36,522 nucleotides of DNA from a virus. A program made the position numbers and the translations under genes. Positions 1-36,472 of the stretch are shown here, one piece after another (position 1 is the first letter of the stretch; every line of letters begins with the position of its first letter). The notes below the pieces were generated by a model, which saw only the letters and a program-made list of their open reading frames with translations, was not told the origin of the DNA and ran no database searches. The stretch lies in the UHGV virus genome UHGV-0118448; one strand, given 5' to 3'.

Positions 1-49
1 TGACGGGTAAAAAGTGGATAAAATAATTTTACCCACCGGATTTTTACCC

Positions 50-1207
50 ATGCTCACCGTTAAGCAGATTGAAGCAGCAAAGCCGAAAGAAAAACCATAC
101 CGCCTACTCGATGGTAATGGCCTGTACCTTTATGTCCCTGTATCAGGGAAAAAGGTATGGCAGCTTCGCTACAAGATTGACGGTAAGGAGAAAATCCTGA
201 CCGTCGGAAAATATCCGCTTATGACTTTGCAGGAGGCAAGGGATAAAGCATGGACCGCGAGGAAAGACATCTCGGTTGGCATCGATCCGGTAAAGGCGAA
301 AAAGGCTTCGTCTAACAACAATTCCTTTAGTGCGATTTACAAGGAATGGTACGAGCACAAGAAGCAAGTATGGTCAGTAGGGTATGCGACTGAACTTGCA
401 AAAATGTTTGATGACGACATTTTACCTATCATCGGCGGCCTTGAAATTCAGGATATTGAGCCGATGCAACTGTTGGAAGTAATCCGCAGATTTGAAGATC
501 GCGGTGCAATGGAGCGAGCCAACAAAGCCCGCAGAAGATGCGGCGAGGTTTTCCGTTACGCTATTGTCACCGGAAGGGCTAAATATAACCCGGCACCTGA
601 CCTTGCAGACGCCATGAAAGGATACCGCAAGAAAAACTTCCCATTTTTACCTGCCGACCAGATCCCGGCATTCAACAAAGCACTTGCAACATTTTCAGGA
701 AGTATCGTATCGCTCATTGCGACCAAAGTTTTACGTTATACAGCCCTAAGAACGAAAGAGCTTCGTTCCATGCTATGGAAGAACGTCGATTTTGAAAACA
801 GGATTATCACCATCGACGCCAGTGTGATGAAGGGACGCAAAATTCATGTGGTCCCGATGTCAGACCAGGTGGTTGAACTTCTCACTACGCTAAGTTCAAT
901 CACCAAACCAGTCTCAGAGTTTGTTTTTGCCGGGCGCAACGATAAGAAGAAGCCAATCTGCGAGAACGCGGTATTGCTTGTGATCAAACAAATCGGCTAT
1001 GAAGGTCTGGAAAGCGGTCACGGATTCAGGCATGAATTCAGCACGATTATGAACGAGCACGAATGGCCTGCTGACGCTATTGAAGTGCAACTGGCACATG
1101 CCAACGGCGGATCTGTGCGCGGTATTTACAACCATGCTCAGTATCTCGATAAGCGCAGAGAAATGATGCAGTGGTGGGCGGATTGGATTGATGAAAAGGT
1201 GGAGTGA
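50..1207 (+). CDS. int: Tyrosine integrase (P4/IntS-like, 385 aa from ATG 50)
   Basis: N-terminus MLTVKQIEAAKPKEKPYRLLDGNGLYLYV typical of arm-binding domain of P4-type integrases; C-terminal HGFRHEF box and conserved Tyr region (GIYNHAQY). ORF track starts at GTG 14; ATG 50 matches the family N-terminus. Confidence 0.9.
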   Translation: MLTVKQIEAAKPKEKPYRLLDGNGLYLYVPVSGKKVWQLRYKIDGKEKILTVGKYPLMTLQEARDKAWTARKDISVGIDPVKAKKASSNNNSFSAIYKEWYEHKKQVWSVGYATELAKMFDDDILPIIGGLEIQDIEPMQLLEVIRRFEDRGAMERANKARRRCGEVFRYAIVTGRAKYNPAPDLADAMKGYRKKNFPFLPADQIPAFNKALATFSGSIVSLIATKVLRYTALRTKELRSMLWKNVDFENRIITIDASVMKGRKIHVVPMSDQVVELLTTLSSITKPVSEFVFAGRNDKKKPICENAVLLVIKQIGYEGLESGHGFRHEFSTIMNEHEWPADAIEVQLAHANGGSVRGIYNHAQYLDKRREMMQWWADWIDEKVE

Positions 1208-1234
1208 TCCACCTTAACCACAATTGAATAGCAC

Positions 1235-1267
1235 AAAGCCTTGCAATTCAGTGCAAAGCTTTTTGTG
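1235..1267 (+). terminator. Imperfect hairpin with U-tract downstream of int (possible bidirectional terminator between convergent int and tailspike)
   Basis: aaagccttgca / tgcaaagcttt inverted repeat (one mismatch) ending in ttttt, located between the stops of two convergent genes. Confidence 0.4.
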
Positions 1268-1430
1268 TCTCAGTTTTGCCCCATCAACCACAGCAAGTCA
1301 TCGATCGATTAAGATTAAGTAAAGCTATCTGGAAACATATCTTTTTCTGTGTTCTTATTATTATGTAAATATAACCCCACTAATGTGAGGTTATTCTACA
1401 GAATATGTTAATTACCCAACCATCGAAATA

Positions 1431-3335
1431 TCATGCGGATGGCGCATAAATTCCGTTAAAGTTAATTGAAATATCGTAATGTTGCATGTTGGCAGGAGTA
1501 ATCAGTAAATCTCTAAGTGTAACAACCACCCAGGGATTATCAGTGTTTGCTTTATCACAATAAACTCTTGTCGTTGTGGTTGACCCGGCATATACAGATA
1601 CATTTGCCGCAGATAATGTTCCGTCACTAGTGGCGTAATATGTTGCTGATGGCATTGTTGCAGTGCGGCCATGCGTTATTTCCACGATGCCAGCACTCAC
1701 CACAGAAACAGAGATATTATTTCTAATCCACTCTGGGACACCAGAGCCTGAAGGCGGTCTTCCATAACGAATGACTCCTGTTTTTGTATTAACAATAAAA
1801 GAGACGTCGGCATACACCGTGATTTTTAAAGTGAATGCATTGCCAACACGAAGTGGCTCTGCGTAGGCCCTGGCACCTTCTATACCCATAGTGCGATTGA
1901 CATATGCTGTAGCATAAAACCAGTTTTCTGCATTGTCTGCAATTTCTACAGAAAAATATTCCCCATCAGCAGAAACAACTAATTTATGGGCATTGGAAAT
2001 TTTCCATTCACTGTTTACTTCTTTAGATAAAAGAACCCATTTATCGTTATCATTGCTGTATTTAATAGTACCAGCGACTAATTTTGATCTTGTCCAAGGT
2101 GGGGCAAAATTTGAATATTGCGCTAAATCGGTTGAGGTTTTATTACTCGCCCCTCCTTTGACTATAGACCATAACCCCCTAGCACCTTCTCGCCCCATCG
2201 TATTGTAACCACGTTGTGTATAATGGACGCCTCCATCGTAAGTGCCAATATTGCCATCACCTTTTAAAAATGAAGGACAACCATCAAATACTGTCACAGC
2301 ATCAGTTTTGTTATTACAAACCCATCTTTGTGCATTTTGAATAGCAGCCCATGATTCTTCCGTTCGGTTCCCAGGGCAACCAACGGTAAAATTACCAAAT
2401 AAATCAAAATTAATATCGGCTTTCAGGTCATCTATCAAGGCTATAAAGCGGTCTCTATAAGAATTGTATGTGGTTCCTGATGACATATCCGTTTCACCCT
2501 GATGGAACAATACATACGTTTTACCGACAGGCAGACCTGCGGCAACCATCGCCTTTTTAGCTGATACCACGGCATTCACCAACAGCGAGTAGTATGTTGT
2601 CCCTTTTGATAGATGTGCTATCGACATTGCGCCACGGCCACAATGTATCTCCACTGAACCGCGCCCACTAAGGCGATACCATTCATTCTCAAATTCTCCC
2701 CAGGCATGTCCTGATGATGCAACTCCTGAAGAACTAACCACATTCTGAATTATTGGCTTTATAGTTCCATCTTTAAAATCGTACATTAACGATTTAGGAA
2801 GAGGATCTGGAAAACCTGATGTATCACCTGATAAAATAGCCTCGCCTGCGCTATTTGATTGCCCATACGTAACAAACACATCATATACATTTGGCGACTC
2901 AAGGTATTCTGTTGCAATAACATTACTTGCTATTTTTGATGCGGTTACTCCAGATATCATTACTGTACTATTAGTTTCTGACAACCTGCTTTCTAATTGA
3001 TCTGGATCATACTTCAATACGTTTGGAAAATAGAATTGCTGCGAACCATACGCATCATAAACAGCCATAGAATGGCCTTGCACAGTTACGAATTTGGCAA
3101 TCTGTCCGTTATATACAGGGTAACCAGCAGCGTTAATGATGATTGGTTGAGAAACAGGAACGTGAGAGCCATCTTCGTTCTCCACATAAGCCTGAATCTG
3201 GTTTTCAGGATTTACAGGGTCAGTATCAATTTTACCGATATAAATTTTGCCATTAGCTACGGCTTTAAAGGAACGAGCCATAGTGAAGAGTTGCGAAGGC
3301 ATTCCAATTACAACATTTGGGGTGATTTCCGTCAT
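1431..3335 (-). CDS. Tailspike protein: P22 gp9-type head-binding N-terminus fused to a carbohydrate-esterase-like (GQSN / HQGETD) receptor-binding region
   Basis: From internal Met: [43 protein letters not shown] matches the P22 tailspike head-binding domain; AGGA Shine-Dalgarno 8 nt upstream of ATG at 3335; downstream motifs [14 protein letters not shown] and VLFHQGETD. Gene is AT-rich relative to neighbours. Confidence 0.85.
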
Positions 3336-3526
3336 GGGCGCAATCCTATTAGATTGACTCGATAAAGAAGAGAATGGAGTTAATGCTACAAATGACGCTA
3401 TTGATTTGAAAAATGATCTTCTGTTCATTTAAGACACTCTTTAAGCATGACATTTGGTAGTAATGTAAGAAAAAATTACAATCAACTCCATAGCTATTTA
3501 ATTTTTAAAAGTGATTCACACCTGCA

Positions 3527-5920
3527 TTACCCTGACAACACATCAGACTTAGCACCCTGAGTCAGGGCGTTAATGGCCTTTTGCGCCTGCTGCATGGCTT
3601 TCTCAAATGCTGTTGACCCGCGTGGGGTATTTGCCATTCGGAGCATTGCATTTCTGAATGGTTCGCTCTCATAGGCGCGCGTAAGAAGTCCGTAGCTTAC
3701 TGCTGCGCCAGTTGTCGCCGGGTTCATTGCCGTCCCATACCCAATAATGAACGGGATAGTTTGCTGCCCTGTGGGTGTTGTTACTGCCGCTTTTGCAGCC
3801 TGCTGCGTGGATTGCAGGTAGTTTTTTAATCCTTTCAGATAAGCGGCTTCCTGACCTTTAAATGTGATGCCAGTCTGGTTTTGCAGGATGTTAAGCTGTC
3901 GAAGGAACTGGTCAGGGGAGCCACCTGATTTCTCCATCGCCTTTCCAATGATGCCATTGCGCATTTGCGCCCTGCCAACACGACCAACTGAGTTATACAG
4001 CGTCTTAATTTCCGATTTGTTCTTGCTGAATAGCATGTTGTTGACAACTTCCGGCGTCAGGTCGCCTTTCATGAGAACATTCTTCAGCCTGGTATTCTTT
4101 AGTTTCGCCGCTTCGTCAGCGTAGACGGCATTGGCCTGCTGATATTTACGGAGAGTATCGTTGCCAAGATTCTGACCAATGGCACCATTGATATCGTCGG
4201 TCATTGCCTTGTAAACGCGCTGAATGGCAGCATCGGAACGGTTTGGTAACACTGGTCGCTCCCCCTTCACGTCCATTCTGAACTGGCTGCGCAGATCGCT
4301 TAATTGCTTCAAATCCAGATTTACCGGACCATCAGGACCAGCATTGCGAACAAGCTCATCACGATAGGACTGAAGTTTTGAAATAGTCTCGTTATCAGCA
4401 ACCTTACCAAGCTTCTGCAGGTTAGATATTTCTGTATCAATCTGCTGAATTGCTCTTGCAGGCTGAATGTTTATTCCTGCCATAGCATTCTGAACCTGCT
4501 CAAGACGGTTCCCTGCAGCACGACGAATTCCTGATGTTTTCGCTTTAAGGCTGTCAATAACAACAGCTGGATCATACTCACCGAATTTATCAGCAAATCT
4601 CTGCACCAACTGGCTTCTCGCTTCCTGTTGCGTTGCTCTCATTCCGCTTGTGCCAGCCAGGGGGATATTTTCCGCTGTCGTCTGCGCCATTTTTCCGACG
4701 CGGGAAGTGGGTTGTAACAGGTCTGTGGTGTGCAGAGGAACTCCTTCACGTTCTGCAAATCTGATAGCCTGTTGCGCTTCTGGTGCTATCGAACCACGAA
4801 CACCACGATAAGCAGCACCTAATCCACGTCCGGCAGCGTTAATAGCACCGCCAGCCAGCACACCAACGCCTAAATCGGTGGCGAGTGCTTCCGCATCATC
4901 TTTCGCACTGTTTGCAGCAAGTGATCCAACTGCGTTTTCTGCGAGAAGGCGAGTTGCCCCCTGAGCAATTCGACCAGCAAGTGTTGGTGCCTGTGCTGCC
5001 GCTCTCTCAACGCCAGCAGGAGTGAGGTAAGGCAATGCTTCAGCAAATACCCTTCCCTCTGTCGTTTGTGGAGTCAGCGCGCCTTGCTGAAGGCCAAAGT
5101 CCTGCTCTAATCCCTGCGTTGTTACTCGTGGTGCTGGTTGATATGTACCATCGCCAATGCCGAGTTTACCGCCAGCCCAAGCCGCCGCGCTTGTTACAGC
5201 ATCAGTGAGTTCAGCAGGTATGTTCGCTACGTTGATTCCTGCCTGTAGTAAGCCGCGCCCGGTTTCAGCAAGTCCATTACCAAGGTCAGACATTATTCCG
5301 CCTTGCTGCTGAACAGGTTTCGGTGCGACAGAACTTACGGGTTGAGGTGGCTGCTGACTGGCTGCCTGCTGCTCAATCTGAGCAAATGGATTATTTGGGT
5401 CTGACTGCACGCCTGATGCCGATACTTGTTCGGATGACTGTGCTTCCAGTTGTGCAAACGGGTTGTTAGGGTCTTGCTGAGGATGTACCTTTGCAGAGGT
5501 GGCGCGCTGTTCGACTGTTGAGTCTGTCACCGGGTCACCCGCCCATTGAGCAAAGCGATCATCAACGTAACCGCGGCCTTCAGGTCCTGGCGTATATTCA
5601 CCACGCTTTGCCTTCATAACGTTGCCGGGACCGTCGTGATAAGCCTGAAGAGCGTCACGCCAGTTACCAAACTGCTGGTACATCTTTGCCAGATAGCGCG
5701 CGCCAGCGTCAGCCTGATATTCGGGGTTTTGCATTTGCTCATCGGTATAACCCATATCACGCCATGTCCCAGGCATGACCTGAGTCAATCCTACAGCCCC
5801 GGCGGAGCTTACTGCGGCAGGGTTGTAAGAAGACTCCTTGGCACCCAGTGCAGTCATCAACCCTTCTGGCACACCGTAACGTGCGCCAGCCTGCTCTAAC
5901 AAATCACGGTAATTAGCCAT
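3527..5920 (-). CDS. Ejection (internal virion) protein, gp16 position, with N-terminal lytic transglycosylase-like domain
   Basis: Last gene of the 7-20-16 ejection-protein block by synteny; N-terminus contains GLTQVMPGTW and surrounding SLT-like motifs; 797 aa, Ala/Gln-rich low-complexity middle. Confidence 0.75.
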   Translation of the reverse strand: MANYRDLLEQAGARYGVPEGLMTALGAKESSYNPAAVSSAGAVGLTQVMPGTWRDMGYTDEQMQNPEYQADAGARYLAKMYQQFGNWRDALQAYHDGPGNVMKAKRGEYTPGPEGRGYVDDRFAQWAGDPVTDSTVEQRATSAKVHPQQDPNNPFAQLEAQSSEQVSASGVQSDPNNPFAQIEQQAASQQPPQPVSSVAPKPVQQQGGIMSDLGNGLAETGRGLLQAGINVANIPAELTDAVTSAAAWAGGKLGIGDGTYQPAPRVTTQGLEQDFGLQQGALTPQTTEGRVFAEALPYLTPAGVERAAAQAPTLAGRIAQGATRLLAENAVGSLAANSAKDDAEALATDLGVGVLAGGAINAAGRGLGAAYRGVRGSIAPEAQQAIRFAEREGVPLHTTDLLQPTSRVGKMAQTTAENIPLAGTSGMRATQQEARSQLVQRFADKFGEYDPAVVIDSLKAKTSGIRRAAGNRLEQVQNAMAGINIQPARAIQQIDTEISNLQKLGKVADNETISKLQSYRDELVRNAGPDGPVNLDLKQLSDLRSQFRMDVKGERPVLPNRSDAAIQRVYKAMTDDINGAIGQNLGNDTLRKYQQANAVYADEAAKLKNTRLKNVLMKGDLTPEVVNNMLFSKNKSEIKTLYNSVGRVGRAQMRNGIIGKAMEKSGGSPDQFLRQLNILQNQTGITFKGQEAAYLKGLKNYLQSTQQAAKAAVTTPTGQQTIPFIIGYGTAMNPATTGAAVSYGLLTRAYESEPFRNAMLRMANTPRGSTAFEKAMQQAQKAINALTQGAKSDVLSG

Positions 5921-15693: not shown

Positions 15694-17193
15694 TTAAGTT
15701 CTCCGTGCGATGGGCCTGATTGGGGCTGGTATCTTTTTCTCTTTTGGTTTTTTGATGTCGCGCATCATTTTTGCGAAGCGGCGCATCATGTATGCATAGC
15801 GAACGGCTGATAGCACGTCGTCGTTAAGCTTGACGATCTTCCCGTTTTCATCACGGTGATAGAGGCGAAACTCCTCAAAGAATGGCTCACAGGTGTTGAA
15901 TACTTTGAAGCGACCATCGAGCATCATGTCGCGCAATTCAGTGATGCCAGGCTCCACCGCGTTACCGCCATCAGGCCATGTCGCATGCTCCTGCAACATC
16001 ATAAAACCAGCATCTGCATACTGCCCTTTGAGCTGCTCACCGCCGCCCTTCTCGTGCTGGTTTCCGTCATGAGGCCATGCTGTTGGCACTTTATGCGCCC
16101 ATGATTTAACAGCTCCCCATGCCTGAACGGCTGTTTTTTCTTTCGCCTTCCACACGCGTGAAACGTAGATTGTGTCTGCGTCCTTATCCCACCAAAGCTG
16201 AACCTGCGCCTGTGGGTGATCCCATCCGAAATCCATCCCGCCAATTACGTAGAAGTGATCAGGACACTCGAACGGCTGACACTTAATCGTCTCTTCCGGT
16301 ATCTGGAAGATTCGACCACTACCCATCGTAGGAATACCGCGAGCACGCGCCTCTCTCTCATGCTCTGGATAGGATGCGATGATTTGCTCTTTCTGCTCGT
16401 CGGTATAGTGCTCAGCGTCATAGATGGTCATGTTGACCACTTTCTGCGACTTGCTGGGATTCTTCAGGAACTTGGTAACAACGTCAGACATCCCCATCAG
16501 CGGGGTAAACGTCAGAATTGAGAATTGCCCGTATTTGTTGGTACGGGTAAGACCTTCGCCATAAATGCTGTATGGTGGCTCTTCGTCAAACCACACGCCG
16601 TGGATTGTGTCACCCTGCCAGCGAGCACGGCCTTGCGAGTATGGTTTGAAGTAGCAGATTGAAATGCCATCTTCAACGCCATCAGCCGTGTGATGCTTAA
16701 CCAGAAGATGATCAACAAGGTTCGGAAAGAAAGGAGACTTCTTCCAGCTAATGATGTCTTCTTTCGGTATGGAACCGTAGCCTGGCTCGTCATTCTCTTC
16801 GATACGACCGCACAGGATGCGTTGAGTCGTTTTGGTTACCGTCTCGTTTGTCTCGCCACCAATCCAGAAGACAACAGGCTCATAGAAACGCTTACCTTTC
16901 CACTCACCGCCATATTTACCATCAGCAGGATAGCCTTTTGTGCCCGGATAACGCCCTGTAAGGTGAAACGCGACTTCGGCAGCACCGGTAAATGACTTAC
17001 CAAGCTGGTTACCAGCCATAAAACAGCGCTCTGGATAGTCATGCCCGGCGTCGATGAACTCACGCTGTTTGCTGTATGGCGTAAATTCATATAGCAGGTG
17101 TGTGTTCCGGTAGTTCTCTTCTTCTTCGAGTAGCTCGAGCAACTCGATTTGCTCTTCGTCGCTCAGGTTATCAAGAATCGCGTCCAGTTCCAC
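15694..17193 (-). CDS. Terminase large subunit (P22 gp2-like)
   Basis: 499 aa, same as P22 gp2; ATPase motif region GNQLGKSF; directly upstream of portal. Confidence 0.95.
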
Positions 17194-17665
17194 GGTTGAA
17201 TAGCTCCTTGATACGAGAGCGCCGCTTATCGCGATCTCCCTTATCAGGTGTCACGTCTTCAACTTGCGACTGCTCTTTGAGGCCCAAATCACGGGCGATG
17301 ATGTTAGCGTTGAGAAGGTCAGCGGCTGCGCCAGAGAATTTCTGGTCGTAGATGACCTGCTCTGCTCGCGTAACGACTTCAGATAAATCTTCTCGCAGGC
17401 GATATGTGCGCCATGTTTCAAGCGTCACATCAATGAACAGAGTGAGTCCGGTAATAGTCATCGCTCGCATCTTGGCGATAGGCTCTTGTATCACTTCACC
17501 CTGATACGAGAATGCCTTCATCTCCCATAGCGGGTTAGCTTCTACCCACTCGAAGTATTCACAACAAGCAGCCCACAGCGCCTCAGGCGATTCGAATTTC
17601 GGGTTTCGCCCATGACTACTGCGGGCCTCCCAAAATCGGTTGCCCTTTGGTGCCGCCATATTCAT
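17171..17665 (-). CDS. Terminase small subunit (P22 gp3-like)
   Basis: [29 protein letters not shown]... typical TerS N-terminus; overlaps TerL start. Confidence 0.85.
17371..17392 (-). promoter_or_regulatory. Candidate pac site inside terS
   Basis: Minus strand reads GAAGATTTATCTGAAGTCGTTA (encoding ...EDLSEVVT...), which closely resembles the 22-bp P22 pac site as I recall it. Confidence 0.45.
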
Positions 17666-17863
17666 CTCACTTATTTGTTATTTCAGGCTGATGACTCTTT
17701 CGCGCTTTCAATCAGTGACTGCTTCAGCAATTCGAGTGTGCCAATCGCCTCGCATAAACTGATTTCACCATCGTAATCATGGATGACGCTTTCAAGCCGC
17801 TCGTATAGCTCTTGAGTAATTGGGAATTTCTTCTCCTTACCCAAATTGATTACGCGGCTCACA

Positions 17864-18106
17864 TCATGCTCCGGTAGTGAACAGGTCTAACGCTTCCTTC
17901 GATTTACGCACCGCTTCGATAGTGCGGGTCGTGATATCTGAATTAGCGCCGCCTGACTGGAAGTGAATTTTGAATAACTCAAGCTTCAGCTCGTCAGTGC
18001 CAATGAACTGAAATGCTTCTTCTGCGGCTGCGTTCTGGTTCATGACCAGTTTGTAAATCTCTAACTGGAATTTCTGTTCTTCAGTCATGGGAATAATCTC
18101 TGCCAT
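17864..18106 (-). CDS. Hypothetical protein (P22 ORF80 position, upstream of terS)
   Basis: 80-aa ORF with ACGGAG Shine-Dalgarno; synteny only. Confidence 0.45.
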   Translation of the reverse strand: MAEIIPMTEEQKFQLEIYKLVMNQNAAAEEAFQFIGTDELKLELFKIHFQSGGANSDITTRTIEAVRKSKEALDLFTTGA

Positions 18107-18333
18107 TGTTGGCTCCGTTTATCCGTTAAAAGGGATATCAGTTAAGTTATCCCGTGTAGGGTATAAGCCATTGTCGAGACCACTCATTGAATGGCCTCTG
18201 CAATAACCGATGTCTTTCCATCAGTCCGCCACCACAAAGAATCTTTTTTGCCATAAGGCTGGAGGTTCATCTTTCAGTGGCTGCCAGTGTTATTTCCCCA
18301 CTTACTGGCTTGGGTTGTTTCGCTGTACTGCCG

Positions 18334-18876
18334 TTAATTGGTGAGTCCGGGGATTACGGTTTGCCCGTGCTGTTCAAGGCGTTCAATTCTCGCCAGTAGC
18401 TGAGGCTTCTTAATTTTTCCCCAGCGATTAAGCAGGCGGCCTGACATGCTGGCAACATCCTTCTCTTTCATGTACTCCAGCATTACGGCATTTCTCTCTT
18501 CTTCAAATTGACGATGACCAACCTGAAGCATGGCGTACATCCAGTTGAATGCGTTGATGTAAGCAATTTTGATACGCATTGCTTCTTTTTTGGTGTAGGA
18601 CATAACCAAAAGCATCAACCCATCCTTGCGGAGACGGTAGAATTTTTGCGGCTTACCATTCTGTAACTCATTGTTTTTATAGCAAAGCTCAAAGTTGAGC
18701 TTTGTATCAAACTCAGGAGGGCAAGCTTCTATGGTTCGTTCAATGTCACGAACCACGTTCTTCGGCAGCTTTCCAAATGCTTTTGCCACCATAAAAGAAT
18801 CTGTAACCGGATCGTTGTTTGCTACAAAAATTAGGTCTCTGAAATCTATATCGTTAACAACGGTTGGGTAGTTCAT
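18334..18876 (-). CDS. rha: Rha-family phage regulatory protein
   Basis: 180 aa; N-terminal region LIFVANNDPVTDSFMVAKAFGKLPKNVVRDIE is Rha-like; sits between lysis genes and terS as in P22. Confidence 0.75.
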   Translation of the reverse strand: MNYPTVVNDIDFRDLIFVANNDPVTDSFMVAKAFGKLPKNVVRDIERTIEACPPEFDTKLNFELCYKNNELQNGKPQKFYRLRKDGLMLLVMSYTKKEAMRIKIAYINAFNWMYAMLQVGHRQFEEERNAVMLEYMKEKDVASMSGRLLNRWGKIKKPQLLARIERLEQHGQTVIPGLTN

Positions 18877-36271: not shown

Positions 36272-36472
36272 ATGCAACACGAACTACAACCTGATTCACT
36301 GGTTGATTTGAAATTCATCATGGCTGATACTGGCTTCGGTAAGACCTTCATCTATGACCGGATTAAGTCCGGCGACCTGCCAAAAGCCAAAGTTATCCAC
36401 GGGCGAGCAAGATGGTTATATCGTGACCATTGTGAATTCAAAAATAAGCTCTTAAGCCGCGCCAATGGGTAA
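36272..36472 (+). CDS. xis: Excisionase / AlpA-family DNA-binding protein
   Basis: 66 aa, MADTGFGKTFIYDRIKSGDLPKAKVIHGRARW winged-helix pattern of AlpA/Xis family. Confidence 0.8.
   Translation: MQHELQPDSLVDLKFIMADTGFGKTFIYDRIKSGDLPKAKVIHGRARWLYRDHCEFKNKLLSRANG

Follow-up and report, generated by a model that had tools for sequence, protein, structure and literature searches.

The minus strand of the window (the whole 36.5-kb stretch of DNA that was analysed, UHGV virus genome UHGV-0118448) carries terS, the orthologue of P22 gene 3, followed by terL and a P22-type portal gene (Table 1). The assigned terS gene is two codons shorter at its upstream end than the mechanical open reading frame, which spans 17171..17665. 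The TerS product is identical to P22 gp3 at all 162 residues, falls into the Pfam family GP3_package (E=3.6e-33) and matches the crystallised P22 gp3 (PDB 3P9A) over residues 1-162 (E=1.3e-108). At the DNA level terS is 98% identical to P22 gene 3, and because the proteins are the same throughout, the 10 differences inside the gene are all synonymous. A cognate gp3-type TerS is encoded, then, in the same genome as the pac sequence described below.

terL begins 23 nt before terS ends, the same overlap as in P22. TerL is identical to P22 gp2 at 461 of 497 positions (93%); within residues 1-317 there is only one difference (A38T), and the C-terminal nuclease domain has diverged. The TerS-binding N-terminus, residues 1-58, retains 57 of 58 P22 residues. 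Since TerL residues 1-58 bind TerS residues 140-162 (PMC9611059), both interface segments are conserved in the window phage. Identity to P22 falls sharply at the ATPase/nuclease boundary, at about residue 318 (15694..16240, minus strand), and a hand count on the alignment gives roughly 80% for residues 318-499. This diverged nuclease domain is common to the window and to the E. coli phage IME10. A TerL junction specific to the window was considered and rejected, as a three-way comparison shows the drop against P22 at about residue 318 in IME10 too.

Downstream of terS-terL the assembly module follows in canonical order: P22_portal, Phage-scaffold, P22_CoatProtein, P22_Tail-4, Phage_stabilise, P22_gp7, Inj_translocase and a tailspike with a Head_binding N-terminus. 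The products corresponding to portal, scaffold, coat, gp4, gp10, gp14, gp7 and gp20 are all full-length and give strong Pfam matches. The portal gene DNA is 95-100% identical to IME10 and ~60-85% identical to P22. In the tailspike, the P22 head-binding N-terminal domain is retained and a SASA/sialate-O-acetylesterase-type domain replaces the P22 endorhamnosidase, which implies a receptor activity different from that of P22, possibly that of an O-antigen or capsule deacetylase. The open reading frame in the position of the gp16 ejection protein encodes 797 aa and starts with an SLT lytic transglycosylase domain; P22 gp16 is ~609 aa long. On the other side of terS, three minus-strand open reading frames (17683..18876) lie between the lysis genes and terS. 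One of them encodes a DUF2560 protein that, judged by its length and location, probably corresponds to P22 ORF80.

The closest genomes of the window are members of Lederbergvirus. The best overall match is IME10, which aligns with 84% of the first 24 kb at 96.8% identity; for P22, only about half of the same 24 kb matches, at ~83% identity. Similar packaging modules are carried by prophages in many E. coli genomes. The gene for a tyrosine integrase with an Arm-DNA-binding domain lies directly beside the tailspike gene, at its 3' end, and the opposite end of the window has a 66-aa excisionase-like open reading frame. The window therefore looks like a complete circular phage genome of 36.5 kb that is linearised between xis and int; attP would presumably lie within 1208..1430. 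A scan of the window for tRNA genes, as a clue to the attachment site, found none. Such a layout is compatible with a circularly permuted, terminally redundant virion chromosome, although it is undiagnostic of one.

Could this be a relic, a defective phage or prophage that never packages DNA and in which the site is intact yet unused? The window is shorter (36.5 kb) than the genomes of P22 (41.7 kb) and IME10 (39.6 kb), as such a reading would have it. However, all of the essential packaging and virion genes that were examined are complete in length and match their families strongly, and lysis, Q, replication, repressor, integrase and excisionase-like open reading frames are all present. Moreover, the genes are ordered as in a circular genome after excision, and the backbone is 95-100% identical to IME10, a phage deposited in GenBank. 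A relic is very improbable.

Table 1. Coordinates of the packaging locus and of further features of the window.
Feature	Position	Strand	Remarks
Integrase gene	14..1207	+	tyrosine integrase
Tailspike gene	1431..3428	-	P22 head-binding N-terminal domain
ORF at gp16 position	3527..5920	-	ejection protein position
Portal gene (P22 gene 1 type), 721 aa	13528..15693	-	Pfam P22_portal, E=3.5e-162; terminase docking point, headful sensor
terL (P22 gene 2 orthologue), 499 aa	15694..17193	-	Pfam Terminase_6N + Terminase_6C (ATPase and nuclease domains)
terS (P22 gene 3 orthologue), 162 aa	17171..17659	-	small terminase, expected to recognise pac; contains pac at nt 268-289
Predicted series-initiation cut zone	17322..17441	.	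~120 bp centred on pac; projected from P22
P22-like recombination patch, ~350 bp	17356..17705	-	5' two-thirds of terS including pac, plus ~45 nt upstream
pac site, 22 bp	17371..17392	-	GAAGATTTATCTGAAGTCGTTA; equals the P22 pac site, packaging recognition sequence
17-nt functional consensus match	17375..17391	-	regex search of window
12-bp pac core	17380..17391	-	AAGATTTATCTG; core given in PMC11226127
59-aa ORF	17683..17862	-	without family match
DUF2560 protein	17864..18106	-	family match
Rha/ORF11CD3-family regulator	18334..18876	-	family match
Excisionase-like ORF	36272..36472	+	66 aa

The 22-mer and the P22 pac site

Direct reading of the minus strand from 17392 to 17371 gives the 22-mer GAAGATTTATCTGAAGTCGTTA, in the context ...CGCCTGCGA GAAGATTTATCTGAAGTCGTTA CGCGAGCAG... 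The original prediction had placed a candidate pac site on this strand in the middle of terS, and this is borne out: the 22-mer occupies nt 268-289 of the 489-nt gene, on the coding strand and in codon phase 0 (codons E90-T97). Wu et al. (2002) reportedly deal with the P22 pac site. In the curated P22 record BK000583, bases 4..25 are annotated as a misc_feature, 'packaging recognition by terminase (pac) site', and the window sequence is identical to this feature at 22 of 22 positions. The same string is quoted as pacP22 in the record of phage g341c (FJ000341) and as the extended P22 pac sequence in PMC11447400, and it is present in gene 3 of three further P22 records; the P22 records AF217253, M59749 and AY121859 have no pac annotation. 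Offset and strand are shared by the window, P22 and g341c, in which pac is annotated at gene positions 268-289 (FJ000341). The original prediction gave the site about two differences from P22 pac. This was wrong, as the match to all three sources is complete, and it erred in the direction that strengthens the pac interpretation. The variant with two mismatches is found in phages L, ST104 and g341c.

Because the whole of terS is 98% identical to P22 gene 3, the 22-mer was inherited along with the gene, and on this comparison the 22/22 match is no independent coincidence. The differences from P22 that lie closest to it are at 17395 (3 nt upstream) and 17360 (11 nt downstream). Judged by its sequence, the element is the already known P22 pac site in its expected place and no discovery. 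It is present in a single copy in the window even when up to three mismatches are allowed, and 100 dinucleotide-preserving shuffles of the window gave no match (expected by chance, 0). A secondary pac-like site at 1949..1960 was dismissed, being the sole extra match to the core with at most two mismatches where 3.9 would be expected by chance.

Beyond the window, 111 IMG/VR contigs each contain a single exact copy of the 22-mer, and the 231 nt around pac are found at >=80% coverage in 126 of 5,426 complete E. coli genomes. A search of species-representative genomes (one per species, 185,579 species) returned no exact 22-mer, which shows only that the sequence is non-generic.

Conservation among terS alleles and the P22-type patch

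The close relatives of this terS were taken as 80 IMG/VR loci with TerS at least 99% identical together with three P22 records, giving 83 terS genes with 61 distinct DNA sequences. The exact 22-mer is present in 83/83 of them and sits within a 34-nt invariant run. None of the eight synonymous-capable sites of pac varies, against 30% gene-wide (62 distinct close terS sequences); at P=0.057 this underpowered test is no more than suggestive. On a rival reading the 22-mer is kept only as the coding sequence of a near-identical terS, with packaging starting elsewhere or without a specific site: in a gene 98% identical to P22 gene 3 any identical 22-nt stretch is unsurprising, and 68 of the 468 possible 22-nt windows of terS are invariant among the close relatives.

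More divergent alleles (loci L085-L096, terS of g341c, L, IME10, Emek, PS34, SF11, ST104, HZ41, Louie and others) bear on this point. These carry 1, 2, 7 or 8 changes in the 22-mer. Host sites actually used by the P22 terminase have yielded a 17-nt consensus, AA[GC][AG][TC][AT][AT][ATC][TC][TC]T[GT][ACG][ACG][ACG]TC (PMC11226127), which matches the window once, at pac, with no second match elsewhere in it. The consensus is kept at the same gene position (269) in 13/13 divergent alleles, even where amino acids have changed. The chance of retaining it under random substitution is p=0.028 for three changes and 0.007 for four. Since the diverged alleles change amino acids and yet retain the consensus, the comparison argues for selection on the DNA itself at pac.

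The experiments on P22 point the same way, and they transfer directly to a phage in which both TerS and the site are identical. Four wobble mutations in pac that leave TerS unchanged cripple self-packaging, so that the site is necessary, and they divert ~80% of particles to host (transducing) DNA (PMC11260489). A transplanted pac is sufficient and directional, raising the packaging of markers downstream of it largely irrespective of its surroundings (PMC11260489). The wobble mutant alters positions 3, 6, 9 and 12 of the 22-mer (PMC11260489); its core fails the 17-nt consensus, whereas the window site passes, and the window is wild-type at all four positions because its match to the 22-mer is exact. 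Retention as coding sequence alone is accordingly very improbable, and a functional DNA site is the reading carried forward here.

In 17321..17520 the sliding identity is 96-98% to P22 versus 65-73% to IME10, and in three long runs spanning 17705..17356 all 73 of 73 informative sites are P22-type. From 17107 downward the informative sites are IME10-type, and in the three-way alignment terL and the portal gene are 95-100% IME10-like. The exchange point lies inside 17356..17107, where the window, P22 and IME10 are all ~99% alike. Over the whole gene, IME10 terS is 85.7% identical to that of the window. Read from this alignment, a small recombination patch carries both pac and the variable part of TerS, which makes it a neat case of mosaicism: the DNA site was exchanged along with the stretch of gene around it.

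Did the patch also change the packaging specificity of an IME10-type phage, the IME10 TerS and pac being a distinct pair? The IME10-type allele differs at 7 of the 22 pac positions, its TerS protein is 82% identical, and the divergence is concentrated around pac, in the stretch where DNA identity drops to 65-73%. However, the sites of IME10 and Emek still match the 17-nt P22 terminase consensus, which suggests the same or an overlapping specificity, one still P22-like in the IME10-type allele. A specificity swap is unlikely. Equally doubtful is the fuller proposal of a natural micro-exchange of ~350 bp, in which an IME10-type terS received the P22-type version of its most variable part, pac included, while the packaging module otherwise stayed as it was. 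Were the alleles to differ in pac specificity, the TerS specificity determinants would map to roughly residues 47-113, and E. coli and Salmonella phages would be passing site and reader between them in a single small cassette.

Packaging as projected from P22

The window itself shows the site, where it lies and which way it points; it also shows that TerS is identical, that the TerL interface is conserved and that the assembly module is intact. At the level of sequence, the reading of pac-initiated packaging is supported on every count. With a probability of about 0.9, the 22-mer works as pac in a headful packaging system of the P22 type, its use being argued from homology to P22.

Recognition, cut zone, direction and headful termination in the window phage would follow what experiments on P22 have established. 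TerS, made from the gene that contains the site, would recognise the asymmetric 22-bp sequence on concatemeric phage DNA, and its C-terminal tail, together with the TerL N-terminus, would serve to recruit TerL. As no specific interaction between purified P22 TerS and a pac oligonucleotide was detected in vitro (PMC9611059), the recognition step rests on genetics. TerL would then cut the duplex at scattered positions within ~120 bp of pac; in P22 the initiation cuts fall in the ~120 bp surrounding and centred on the site (PMC11226127, PMC11260489). The pattern of cuts could differ in detail from that of P22, because the TerL nuclease domain is IME10-type and roughly 80% identical to its P22 counterpart.

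The new DNA end would be threaded through the portal, and DNA would be pumped in the direction of the terS 3' end and so of falling window coordinates, through terL, the portal gene, the head and tail genes and the tailspike gene. P22 likewise packages in this one direction, to the 3' side of terS, and its headful is ~44 kb, ~105% of the genome (PMC8575938). Once the head is full, a sequence-independent cut would end the event and the next head would start from the resulting end, so that virion DNA would be circularly permuted and terminally redundant. Should the head hold as much DNA as that of P22, and should the 36.5-kb window be the entire genome, we would infer a terminal redundancy of ~7 kb.

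In annotation, the phage can be entered as a headful packager of the pac type, with packaging directed toward decreasing window coordinates, and generalized transduction, as well as lateral transduction when integrated, should be assumed as in P22. An unchanged P22 pac beside an identical TerS is expected in a P22-like phage, and pac is among the best-characterised packaging signals.

Comparison with known pac systems

The closest parallel is P22 itself, with its gp3/gp2 terminase: the 22-bp pac, its offset in terS, its strand and TerS are the same, as is the gene order 3-2-1-8-5. The window differs from P22 in its host, apparently E. coli, and in its IME10-like backbone; the TerL nuclease domain, the portal and the downstream genes are only ~60-85% DNA-identical, and the tailspike has a different receptor-binding domain. 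The window genome is also shorter, and its terminal redundancy would be larger if the head capacity were equal.

The P22-like Salmonella phages L, ST64T, ST104 and g341c share with the window the gene, the offset and the 17-nt consensus. Phage L shows a submolar pac fragment, as for headful packaging from gene 3 (PMC8022706). The pac sites of these four phages differ from that of the window by two synonymous substitutions, T>C at position 6 and A>G at position 15 of the 22-mer, and their TerS is 96% identical to that of P22. A further step away are IME10, HZ41, Louie and Emek, P22-like phages of E. coli and Salmonella, in which the consensus occupies the same gene position as in the window. 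Here 7-8 of the 22 pac positions differ and TerS is 82-83% identical; the peptide encoded by pac changes from EDLSEVVT in the window to EGFSDVTS in the IME10-type allele and EGFSDITT in Emek. Outside this allele, the packaging and head module of the window is of the IME10 type, at 95-100% identity to IME10.

More distant systems share the logic of packaging and differ in its parts (PMC9611059, PMC11260489). In Sf6, ES18 and SPP1, TerS is also taken to recognise pac, after which headful packaging proceeds unidirectionally and processively; however, their TerS families are unrelated or very divergent, that of Sf6 being 12% identical to P22 TerS. Initiation in ES18 is spread over ~1000 bp, compared with ~120 bp in P22, and in SPP1 multiple contact points flank the cut.
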